Positions 16,480 to 51,168 of a DNA stretch of 64,000 nt are shown one piece after another. Below the pieces are notes generated by a model. The model saw only the letters and a program-made list of their open reading frames with translations. It ran no database searches and was not told the DNA's origin. A program made the translations under genes and the position numbers. The DNA comes from Eledone cirrhosa (lineage: Eukaryota): assembly GCA_964016885.1 (NCBI GenBank), contig OZ024740.1, positions 424,018,001-424,082,000 of the forward strand, read 5' to 3'. Numbering within the stretch: the stretch's first letter is position 1; each line of letters begins with the position of its first letter.

Positions 16480-16689
16480 TAGAAAGTGAGGTATTTTTTA
16501 CAAAATGAAAAATAACCAAGGTGTCCTACACTAGTGAAAGTATAAAGAAAAAGAGATGAAATCGAAAATGCAACTGAAGTCTTATTTAAAAAAAAAATAT
16601 ATATATTTATTTGGTTCCTTTACCTGTTTCGCAGTTCTTCTGCTTTTCAAAAGGTGAGTTGAGATGGAGGGTCTGTGGTTTTTCTCACA
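16480..16689 (-). mobile_element. Penelope-like terminal-repeat fragment with a decayed hammerhead motif
   Basis: Minus strand reads cctt-TTGAAAA-gcag-aagaa-ctgc-GAAA-cagg-TA-aagg (16617-16654), then AATAAA. Ends ...ttctaata into (TA)n. Confidence 0.5.
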
Positions 16690-16900
16690 TATATATATAT
16701 ATATATATAGTATATATATATATATATATATATATATATATATATATATATATATGGTATATATATATATATATATATATATGGTATATATATATATGGT
16801 ATATATATATATATATATATGGTATATATATATATGGTATATATATATATATATATGGTATATATATATATGGTATATATATATATATATATATATATAT

Positions 16901-18923
16901 ATGGGGTTGTTCCGAAGGAATGGCGTAGCAGCATCATCGTTAACTGCTATAAGGGAAAAGGAGATGCCCTAGATAGGAGTAACTATAGAGGCATTAAATT
17001 AATCGACCAGGTCATGAAGGTCACGGAAAAAGTAATAGCGCAACTAATCAGAGAGAGAATTGATCTAGATGAAATGCAGTTCGGGTTTGTGTCAGGCAAA
17101 AGTACCACAGACGCTCTTTTCATTGTACGACAACTACAGGAGAAGTACCTAGCTAAAAGTAAACCCCTATACTTAGCTTTTGTCGACTTGGAGAAAGCCT
17201 TCGACAGAGTCCCCCGTTCCATTATCTGGTGGTCTCTTAGAAAACTAGGTGTTGACGAATGGCTTGTGAGAGCTATACAAGCCATGTATAAAGAAACAGT
17301 CAGTAAGGTTAGAATTAACAACGAATATAGTGAAGAGTTTAGCGTAAAAGTTGGTGTCCATCAGGGCTCTGTACTTAGCCCCCTACTATTTATTATTGCC
17401 CTTCAGGCTATAACAGAGGAGTTCAAGACCGGCTGCCCATGGGAACTCCTATACGCAGATGATCTAACGCTCATAGCTGAATCAATGACCGAACTAGAGA
17501 AGAAATTCCAAACGTGGAAGCACGGCCTAGAATCAAAAGGCCTTAAAATTAACCTGGCTAAGACTAAAGTTCTAGTTTGTAGGAAAGAAAATAAGGCGGC
17601 GGTCCCATCGGGGAAATGGCCATGCTCAGTGTGTAGGAAAGGCGTAGGTAGAAACTCCATTTTATGTCCCAAATGCAAAGTATGGGTGCATAAAAGATGT
17701 AGTGGGATCACAGGTAAGCTAACTAAGAACATAGATTTTACATGTGGCCGGTGCTCTGGTGCAATAAGTAGCAGCAAGTGCCCACAAAATACTAGCTCCT
17801 TCAACTGCGCAGAGGGTTCTATAGAAATAGTGGATAGCTTCCGTTATCTGGGTGACAAAATCAGCAGTGGGGGAGGGTGCTCTGAAAGTACAGTAGCTAG
17901 AGTCAGAACTGGATGGAAAAAGTTCAGAGAGCTTATACCACTATTAGCCGCTAGAGGGTTCTCCCTAAAAATGAAAGGCAGGTTATACGATGCCTGCATA
18001 CGAACAGCAATGCTGCATGGCAGTGAGACCTGGGCATTGTGTGCAGAGGATATACGCAGACTAGAGAGGAACGAAGCTTGCATGCTCCGCTGGATGTGCA
18101 ATAGTAATATACGTGAACGGCAAAGCATAAACGAACTAAGGAAAAAATTAGAAATAAGAGGGATCAGATGTTGTTTACTCGAGAGAAGGCTACGTTGGTA
18201 CGGTCACGTGATGCGCATGAAAGACGACAGCTGTATAACAAAGTGCAGGGCAATAAAGATAGACGGTAGCCACGGAGTAGGCAGACCCAGAAAAACATGG
18301 GACGAGCTGATAATTTCCGACCTCACACGCTTACACCTCTCCAAGACAATGTCACTGGACCGAGACCTTTGGCGGTACTCAGTAATAGAGAAGACCCGCC
18401 TTACCTAAATACAAAGTAAAAACCTACTACAGTCAGTAGGCACCTCTATCAAAACACACCCCCGTCCCACCACCTCCACCTCCACCCCACCCACACCGCC
18501 CCTTTCAATGTAAAGTTATGTTGGCCCCACAACATCCAGGCCGAAACAAATGAGATCGTGTAGGTGTCACGACAAAAAACACACAGTCCACGCTGTAAAT
18601 GTGGCCGTGTAGGCAACACGGTAAAAACCTCCCGGCCCCACACTGTAAATGTGGTTGGTGTTAGGAAGGGCATCCAGCTGTAGAAAACCCGCCAGACAGT
18701 CCACGCTGTAATGTGGCCGTGTAGGCAACACGGTAAAAACCTCCCAGCCCCACACTGTAAATGTGGTTGGTGTTAGGAAGGGCATCCAACTGTAGAAAAC
18801 CCGCCAGACAGTCCTATGCGAGCAAGACAACCACTCTTGCCTCAAGTGGGAAAACCCCCGTCCAAACCCATGCAAGCGTGGAACACGGACGCTAAACCTG
18901 ATGATGATGATGATGATGATGAT
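16901..18923 (+). mobile_element. RTE LINE family B, copy B1, 5'-truncated (RT + PHD + C-terminus open to 18408, 3'UTR, (GAT)n tail)
   Basis: ORF 16819..18408 from GVVPKEW onward. 3'UTR carries a tandem duplication of about 113 bp (18583-18814). Both flanks are (TA)n. Confidence 0.96.
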
Positions 18924-19239
18924 ATATAGTATATATATATATATATATATATATATATATATATATATGGTATATATATATGGTATATATATATGGTATA
19001 TATATATATATATATATATATATATGGTATGTATATATATATAGTATATATATATATATATATATATATATATGGTATATATATAGTATATATATATATA
19101 TGCTATGTATATATATATATAGTATATATATATATATGCTATGTATATATATATATATATATATATATATATATATATATGGTATATATATATATATATA
19201 TATATATATATGTGGTATATATATATATATATAGTATAT

Positions 19240-49524: not shown

Positions 49525-49722
49525 CACGTTTCCTTTCCCTATATGTCTCTCCACCACTCCCCTACACACCTTTTGAACTCTGTTCCCACACACTTCTCAC
49601 CTGAGGAAGGGCTTATGCCCGAAACGTCGTCCCCCACCTACACCCCACTCTCCTGAGCGTGAAATTAATAAACATTTATTGTACTGCCCCTCTGTTTTGT
49701 CCCTGTTCAAATTTTTCCATTA
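49525..49722 (+). mobile_element. Penelope-like element PLE3b, 3' terminal fragment with hammerhead motif
   Basis: CTGAGGA-a-gggc-ttat-gccc-GAAACGTC (49601-49628), AATAAA near 49667. Homologous to 25917-26098. Confidence 0.65.
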
Positions 49723-50925
49723 TATATTATAGATATATGTATGTATATATATATATATGTGTAGATATATGTATGTATATATATATATGTGTGTAGATAT
49801 ATGTATGTATATATATATATGTATAGATATATGTATGTATATATATATATATATATATATGTATAGATATATGTATGTATATATATATATATATATAGAT
49901 ATGTATGTATGTATATATATATGTATATATATATATGTATGTATATATATATGTATGTATATAAGAATATATATATATAGATAGATATGTATGTATGTAT
50001 ATATATATGTATATATATATATGTATGTATATATATATATGTATGTATATATATATATATATATATATAGATATATATATGTCTGTATATAGATATATGT
50101 ATGTATATATATATATATATATATATAGATATATGTATGTATATAGATATATGTATGTATATATATATATATATATATATATATATATAGAGATATATAT
50201 ATATATAGATATATATATATATATATGTATATATATATATATATATATATATATATATATATATGTATGTATATATATGTATATATATATATATATATAT
50301 ATGTATGTATATATATATATATAGATATATGTATGTATATATATATGTATGTATATATATATATATAGATATATGTATGTATATATATATGTATGTATAT
50401 ATATATATATAGATATATGTATGTATATATATATGTATGTATATATATATATATAGATATATGTATGTATATATATATGTATGTATATATATATATAGAT
50501 ATATGTATGTATATATGTATGTATGTATATATATATATAGATATATGTATGTATATATATATGTATGTAGATATATGTATATATATATGTATATGTATGT
50601 ATATATATATGTATATGTATGTATATATATATGTATGTGTATATATATATATATATGTATGTATGTATGTATATATATATATATATATGTATGTATATAT
50701 TTGTATATATATATATATATATATGTATATATATATATATGTATGTATATATATATATATATGTATGTATATATATATGTATGTATATATATATATATAT
50801 GTATGTATATATATATGTATGTATATATATATATATATATATGTATGTATGTATGTATATATATGTATGTATATATATATATATATTTATATATGTATGT
50901 GTATGTATATATATATATATATATA
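49723..50925. repeat. (TA)n with TAGATATATGTATG interruptions
   Basis: Read directly. Confidence 0.95.
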
Positions 50926-51126
50926 TATTGTTATACTTAGGGAGGGTCATATTTCTGTAATATTGCCAGAATTAATAACAGAACACACTCATTGTTTGGT
51001 TGGTTTTCGCTTCTGTGTCTTTTATATCGGTAATCTAATTTATTCGGTCCGCAATGTTGCCATTGACTGACCGACGGTCGAAAATAATACAGATACAATA
51101 TAGACACAAACACATATATATAGTTT

Positions 51127-51168
51127 ATCAAAGTTCTTTCGTTGCACATCTCCAACATCATCAGTGGT
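51127..51168 (-). ncRNA. Minimal hammerhead ribozyme motif (PLE2 pLTR)
   Basis: acca-CTGATGA-t-gttg-gagatgtg-caac-GAAA-gaac-TT-tgat. Same GAAAGAACT stem III as PLE1. Confidence 0.65.

Follow-up and report, generated by a model that had tools for sequence, protein, structure and literature searches.

Penelope-like elements (PLEs) carry minimal hammerhead ribozymes in their pseudo-long terminal repeats (pLTRs), and these hammerheads as well as the inverted arms and the microsatellite bias of the elements are already published (PMC4209133, PMC8557442); all comparisons made here refer to the available parts of the cited texts. A cysteine linker preceding the endonuclease (EN) has been proposed to drive the microsatellite bias (PMC8557442). 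The protein of an Anolis PLE cleaves and extends both strands of AT-rich targets in vitro, hammerhead cleavage being unnecessary there, and the available text of this study does not say whether both strands use one RNA or two (PMC11167929). Penelope RNA is a known heavy target of ADAR in lizard and frog, and hyper-editing in octopus is very high (PMC5625713, PMC10636886, PMC9068888). Here we analysed a window of 64,000 nucleotides from the 3.0-Gb genome of Eledone cirrhosa (contig OZ024740.1, positions 424,018,001 to 424,082,000; G000:C1:424018001-424082000), in which an initial annotation had described eight hammerhead motifs. The motifs belong to six repeat families, A to F, some insertions of which consist of a forward and an inverted arm, both joining (TA)n at their 3′ ends. 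The window copy of family E and a number of family B copies carry clustered A>G changes, termed scars below. With a probability of roughly 0.7, we conclude that the window holds five PLE families (A, B, C, D and F) and one 481-bp unit (E) likely mobilised by a Penelope protein, that the scars were likely made by ADAR, and that both arms of a scarred insertion were likely reverse-transcribed from one RNA.

Compared with the family majority, the forward arm of the family E insertion has 25 differences, of which 20 are A>G and none is T>C (97 A and 142 T columns; binomial p about 1e-15). Under a different majority set, 19 of 25 differences were A>G. The G17 cleavage-site defect reported in the initial annotation is real and nearly private to this copy (1 of 54 other family E copies), but it had escaped notice that the copy is A>G hypermutated throughout. 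Its double-G motif is unique (1 of 191 matches). Membership in an older subfamily was rejected, as the copy shares only 0–1 non-A>G changes with 35 older pieces. Sequencing reads from related organisms carry A at the scar sites listed; as family relatives they report ancestral states only. The inverted arm shares two of the three A>G scars in its overlap with the forward arm and holds approx. 100 nt that have no counterpart there.

A blind scan of 1.48 Mb revealed a family B copy with 111 A>G changes among 144 differences. Since the scan, an all-against-all megablast comparison, missed the window's own E copy, it undercounts such cases. In the inverted arm of the scarred B copy, identical element positions are affected, the changes there reading T>C on the plus strand; the scars thus flip with the arm. 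This copy does not represent a subfamily, as no daughter copies exist and its best relatives share at most 3 of its 110 A>G changes. Forced-edit pattern searches were carried out for families B, F, E and D. A family B 28-mer with one forced A>G gave 27 matches, 13 of them with at least two further A>G changes within 28 nt, and two further changes were seen in none of the 23 matches to the mirror control with a forced T>C. Of the 56 family B loci examined, 17 passed a filter demanding at least 10 A>G changes that make up at least half of all changes. These loci represent 15 insertions among 5,781 family matches, i.e. at least 0.3%. Loci L042, L274 and L018 (7 of 12–13 changes A>G) were regarded as weak candidates and, like L255, which lies inside a satellite, were not counted. 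Three insertions with scarred catalytic cores are present in the genome, which agrees with the in vitro evidence that insertion does not require cleavage.

The sequence context of the scars resembles that of ADAR editing. Pooled A>G rates in family B depend on the 5′ neighbour (U 0.40, A 0.29, C 0.15, G 0.11), the gradient reaching a p of 1.7e-7 in one copy, and on the 3′ neighbour (G 0.36 versus 0.21–0.23 for the others). ADAR1 prefers 5′ neighbours in the order U=A>C>G (PMC11120146), and edited sites are depleted of upstream G (PMC5625713). Both the clustering of A>G changes on the RNA strand only and the preference U/A > C > G are thus ADAR-like. The scars fade toward the 3′ end, and the last 100 nt are free of them (0 of 355 A positions); this is where the protein would be expected to bind and start. 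Furthermore, the genome encodes A_deamin proteins, and loci with inverted arms are a plausible source of double-stranded substrate. Hypermutation of the ADAR type is known from retroviral genomes. Like APOBEC-hypermutated retroelements of vertebrates, the scarred copies show strand-biased clusters of a single change type in the germline. In contrast to them, the changes are A>G, occur in genomic DNA of an invertebrate and were apparently written on RNA rather than cDNA; the available text of a screen of long terminal repeat elements from 19 invertebrates reported no DNA editing (PMC4866542, PMC2873906).

In the five well-scarred family B cases, the two arms of the same insertion share 15/19, 51/54, 38/46, 39/39 and 102/102 scars (79–100%). 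Between insertions, 2,779 of 12,633 scars are shared (22%, range 5–58%). The simplest model, given that both target strands are extended by the Anolis protein (PMC11167929), is that one RNA was primed twice. This model recalls L1 twin priming, except that here the two cDNAs overlap. An unlikely alternative accepts ADAR as the source of the scars and has the RNA read only once, the second arm being copied from the first cDNA by fold-back or template switch or homogenised by later gene conversion. In its favour, the arms of L298, L324/L325 and L341 are nested, and those of L341 look identical throughout. In L332, L375 and the window copy, however, both arms include sequence missing from their partner, so that neither is simply a copy of the other. 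Also against a single reading, the (TA)n junctions of the two arms of an insertion lie at different preferred sites, each arm usually taking one of them (approx. 20 of 23 pairs in family A). Moreover, ordinary family B arm pairs share 5 rare variants and differ in 110 (16 pairs), indicating that gene conversion is not routine. The arms of L341 (G000:C22:15.915-15.917 Mb) start at the same position and form a near-perfect palindrome.

Errors of the PLE reverse transcriptase (RT), caused for example by dNTP imbalance, would likewise be strand-specific and confined to the element. We nevertheless consider this origin very improbable in view of the steep 5′ neighbour gradient. Errors of two separate RT runs are not expected to be common to both arms, and the clustering is family-specific, being present in B but not seen in its 66%-identical relative F. 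A DNA-level process such as TpA-directed hypermutation or biased repair, or an assembly artefact, arising after insertion has next to nothing left in its favour except that TpA sites are hit most and that the alleles were not seen in reads, and it is already largely refuted by the mirror control, T>C clusters being missing from the element sense strand. The strand flip in inverted arms, the occurrence of 15 insertions on different contigs with different patterns, and the absence of A>G clusters from all 101 LINE/SINE (long and short interspersed element) pieces also speak against it.

Several observations weigh against ADAR editing and a twice-read RNA. Four of the A>G sites in the window E copy are G in most older E subfamilies, leaving approx. 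15 securely derived changes, and none of the sequencing runs searched held half of the words of this copy, so that its scars rest on the assembly. Its arms have only two of three scars in common, and in three arm pairs whose overlap contains few scars the shared fractions are just 2/3, 2/5 and 2/8. In L341 the arms have equal counts in every change class including non-A>G, which conversion or a collapsed palindrome could explain. Hypermutated copies are also rare and unevenly distributed: family F gave no double-forced match compared with 4,113 exact copies, and none of its 10 single-forced loci was scarred; a second scarred E case was absent from 19 further loci, and the single D match was unscarred. 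Downstream G occurs at 28% of the sites, slightly above the 20–25% given for octopus (PMC5625713). Among the loci collected, none represents a protein-coding element from which family E could derive. Finally, cleavage, transcripts and editing are predictions from sequence.

We lean toward a fuller account in which ADAR-hyperedited Penelope or retrozyme RNAs have repeatedly been written into the germline. The edits would serve as barcodes of single molecules, the arms would represent two primings on the same RNA, one per cut strand and start site, and a working ribozyme at the copied site would be unnecessary. Following published work, the GIY-YIG protein would cut both strands of (TA)n DNA, and reverse transcription would start at an internal position of the RNA that lies downstream of the hammerhead. 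One arm would be primed by each cut strand, usually one per preferred start site, probably helped by a TAT match of 3–4 nt. The hammerheads would cleave only as dimers or with the help of protein, trimming multimeric precursors and, in family E, releasing 481-nt circles, while cleavage of the copied site would not be required for insertion. ADAR would edit a double-stranded form of the RNA, inosine would be read as G, and two readings of the same edited molecule would leave the same scars in both arms.

All eight hammerhead sequences of the initial annotation were found at the positions given for them, but they amount to only seven insertions, the motifs at 21882 and 22318 lying on two inverted arms of one insertion. 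Nor are the six families all unrelated, as had been proposed: those of the motifs at 22318 (B) and 51127 (F) are 66% identical in amino-acid sequence across 713 residues and have a tail in common. With a type I descriptor, five perfect-core motifs were found in the 39,887 non-TA bases of the window and none in each of 40 dinucleotide shuffles; when one core mismatch was allowed, six motifs compared with a shuffle mean of 0.6. An Rfam scan at gathering score modelled none of the window motifs and gave no hammerhead match in a family E array either. In their family forms, A, B, C, E and F show the type I stem order and the conserved core, and D has C4. The 21882 motif fails the descriptor.

Two further supposed core defects turned out to be fixed family states. 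UUGAAAA is present in 41 of the 42 family A copies listed (of 47) and CCGAAGA in 30 of the 31 family D copies listed (of 38), which rules out decay as their origin. Individual motifs show additional features. In family A, stem III is the palindrome ACCGGU, with a private C>A in the window copy. The family C hammerhead at 26009-26036 has a 2-bp stem I, an ACGU stem III and an extra nucleotide after A9, and the base of stem II is mismatched (C-A) in the family D hammerhead. The change from GGGC/GCCC to GGGC/GCUC, initially taken as retained pairing, is one-sided, occurs in 1 of 31 other copies and does not represent covariation. Two-sided stem changes do exist between subfamilies (GCUUUG/CAAAGC versus GCCUUG/CAAGGC; CCGAUCGG versus CUGAUCAG; CAAUUG versus CAGCUG). 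Compensatory changes were read by eye in stem II of E, in the stem III palindromes of E and D, and at U3-A8 of A. Every island belongs to a multi-copy family. AATAAA, said to follow most motifs, was seen by eye in five of the six families and is a weak sign in AT-rich DNA.

The window is not a special hammerhead cluster, its density being ordinary for the genome. A second descriptor found 5 matches in the 64 kb of the window, 10 in 200 kb of neighbouring DNA and 19 in 40 spread 10-kb samples (400 kb), and ten shuffles of 600 kb gave four matches in all. By rough extrapolation from 19 per 400 kb, with matches coming in pairs, the genome may contain motifs on the order of 1e5 (approx. 1.4e5), as opposed to the 2,000–9,000 per genome obtained with a different descriptor in PMC4209133. 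The loci collected fall into 47 motif groups, 29 of them with a perfectly palindromic stem III segment. A fixed CCGAAGA core was also observed in other groups (L240:3738, L242:406-6859), and D-type motifs additionally lack the G10.1-C11.1 pair. In their type I fold, a stem I as short as 2 bp, the extra nucleotide after A9, the minimal or palindromic stem III, the solo and inverted copies and the many families per genome, the motifs resemble the published pLTR hammerheads, and the U3-A8 core of family A corresponds to a covariation described for Schistosoma PLEs (PMC4209133). The family-fixed C4 core, in contrast, is not met in the available text of that study.

Judged by sequence, the motifs of five protein-coding PLE families represent minimal type I hammerheads situated in pLTRs, a published kind of system. 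The suggestion that they mark PLE or retrozyme-like ends seeking TA is borne out, five families being tied to open reading frames (ORFs) for RT or GIY-YIG proteins and the sixth to the 481-bp tandem unit. Families A, B, C, D and F run upstream for variable lengths into protein-coding sequence. Longer family A copies encode an upstream GIY-YIG EN (PF01541, E 2.7e-6, above the Pfam cut-off), and an RT core was not seen in them. Family B has an 825-aa ORF, with RT and EN in longer copies, and family C has RT and EN frames; their RVT_1 matches are weak and below the cut-off. Family D combines a PF01541 match below the cut-off with an ORF containing YRDD, and the 1,119-aa ORF of family F contains YVDD and an EN motif and has no Pfam match at E 0.01. 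At L181:2598-5954, the family F ORF has a long asparagine-rich low-complexity insert upstream of RT. The closest named relative of the family B protein is from Octopus vulgaris (70% identity; next 49%). A C-X4-C-XX-C linker, similar to that proposed to drive the microsatellite bias (PMC8557442), is present in A, B-type, C and F, and D has another cysteine pattern. Compared by motif rather than by tree, this layout of RT, cysteine linker and C-terminal GIY-YIG resembles canonical EN+ PLEs of the Neptune/Nematis type. The two also have in common that copies are 5′-truncated, show a bias toward microsatellites and carry an inverted 5′ copy and, at one end, a tail (PMC8557442); in our families, 5′ truncation occurs together with an inverted 5′ arm and an optional tail (arm pairs counted for A, B, D and F).

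Docking in TA was confirmed genome-wide: of the 216 3′ ends that were resolved, 204 pass into (TA)n. In the window, however, LINEs and SINE-like repeats are likewise embedded in TA. At least two preferred 3′ ends were observed in each of families A, B, E and F, and at those checked the template continues with TAT or TAA, a possible priming match of 3–4 nt to the target as judged from these junctions. Initiation by the Anolis protein, in contrast, is not homologous to the target (PMC11167929). The tails of B and F read, by eye, as a conserved ORF N-terminus, like the Anolis Poseidon element, in which RT starts inside the ORF, at two internal sites in its 5′ part in vitro (PMC11167929). Tail lengths are approx. 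45–105 nt here versus 30–40 in PMC8557442.

The family E unit is 481 bp long, non-coding and of 36% GC, its longest ATG-started frame being 40 aa, and one 30-mer from it has 191 matches in the genome. It recurs every 481 bp in arrays of up to seven head-to-tail units, each carrying a type I hammerhead with a long stem II. In the seven-unit array, the six units compared differ by 0–1 nt. All 46 ends (46/46) dock in TA, and both PLE-type inverted arms and two preferred ends occur. These properties suggest that E is likely mobilised by a Penelope protein, and by sequence it fits the definition of non-LTR retrozymes (PMC7229834). Like those of metazoans it is non-coding and tandemly arranged, with a type I hammerhead in each unit. 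It differs from them in length (481 bp versus 150–450 quoted), in its long stem II and in having its own PLE insertion signature (PMC7229834; 10.64898/2026.07.22.740005). A 2026 preprint regards retrozymes as non-autonomous PLE derivatives, which would predict this signature (10.64898/2026.07.22.740005). It is improbable that E is instead a terminal fragment of an unseen protein-coding PLE. The inverted arms, preferred ends and TA docking would suit such a fragment, and only part of the 191 matches was looked at, but arrays of up to seven whole units with no ORF speak for a self-standing unit, as do diverged relatives (70–83% identity) that align along this unit. Other hammerhead families (L263, L264, L272, L288, L247) have a stem II of approx. 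50–60 nt like E, and some of them are diverged E relatives with this range of identity. In one run of unrecorded kind, the E region 45903-46432 reached a summed contig depth of up to 5e4, not readable as expression; if this run were RNA, E-like units could be highly expressed.

Table 1. Hammerhead-bearing insertions and associated features in the window (positions of the window).
Feature	Coordinates	Strand	Details
Family A, 5′-truncated pLTR of PLE	16486..16690	-	hammerhead 16617-16654, family-fixed U3-A8 core
Family B insertion, inverted arm, stops at first preferred end	21747..22007	-	hammerhead 21882-21924, private stem III break
Family B insertion, forward arm, stops at second preferred end	22005..22563	+	intact hammerhead 22318-22360
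Family C PLE, 3′ untranslated region (UTR) and pLTR	25918..27040	-	hammerhead 26009-26036
Family D PLE, pLTR	35590..36026	-	hammerhead 35627-35675, family-fixed CCGAAGA core
Family E insertion, inverted arm (unit 293-476)	45896..46075	-	
Family E insertion, forward arm (unit 1-372 of 481-bp unit), A>G hypermutated	46076..46438	+	hammerhead 46275-46354, A17>G at 46350
Second family C pLTR fragment	49525..49720	+	hammerhead 49601-49628
Family F PLE, forward arm, LINE-split	50929..53256	-	GIY-YIG-type EN 52652-53023, 3′ UTR, hammerhead 51127-51168
RT-type LINE fragment inside family F copy	51400..52605	-	72% to LINEs whose ORF matches RVT_1
Family F inverted arm, stops at second preferred end	53255..53427	+	

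Approx. 41% of the window is TA-type microsatellite, pure TA runs making up 29% of it versus 4.5% in the spread samples; the rest consists of repeat islands, for the most part LINE copies that encode RT and PHD domains. Positions 1-12436 form a degenerate (TA)n array of 12.4 kb. LINE copies at 12445-14951 (-) and 37442-39941 (+) are 98.5% identical; both combine RT with PHD-finger domains and end in an (ATC)n-type tail. Another LINE family has about ten copies (e.g. 46754-49485 and 54422-57031); the LINEs of the window are probably RTE elements. SINE-like repeats of approx. 320 bp, presumably of tRNA origin, lie at 25164-25488, 25500-25813 and 59428-59762 and have their 3′ end in common with the LINEs. 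The islands at 21083-21630 and 27655-33672 have neither close copies in the window nor hammerhead matches. A 39-bp tandem repeat with 19 copies (62553-63294) contains one relaxed hammerhead-like match, probably by chance.

Among the full texts searched, which excluded most subscription journals, none described A>G hypermutation in genomic copies of Penelope elements, and a weak search gave no mention of cephalopod hammerheads. The available text of an octopus repeat annotation mentions neither ribozymes nor editing (PMC13282606). A germline record of ADAR editing in PLE or retrozyme copies, and its use as evidence for one RNA, may be new. The way in which inverted Penelope structures arise is among the open questions named in PMC8557442, and on this point the scars would provide an in vivo readout, namely one RNA that is read twice. 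If this is true, RNA editing becomes heritable DNA. The scarred copies would then preserve in DNA the traces of ADAR activity on a germline retrotransposon; the invertebrate lineage concerned is known for extreme editing, and editing as a transposon defence could be dated and counted from genomes alone.

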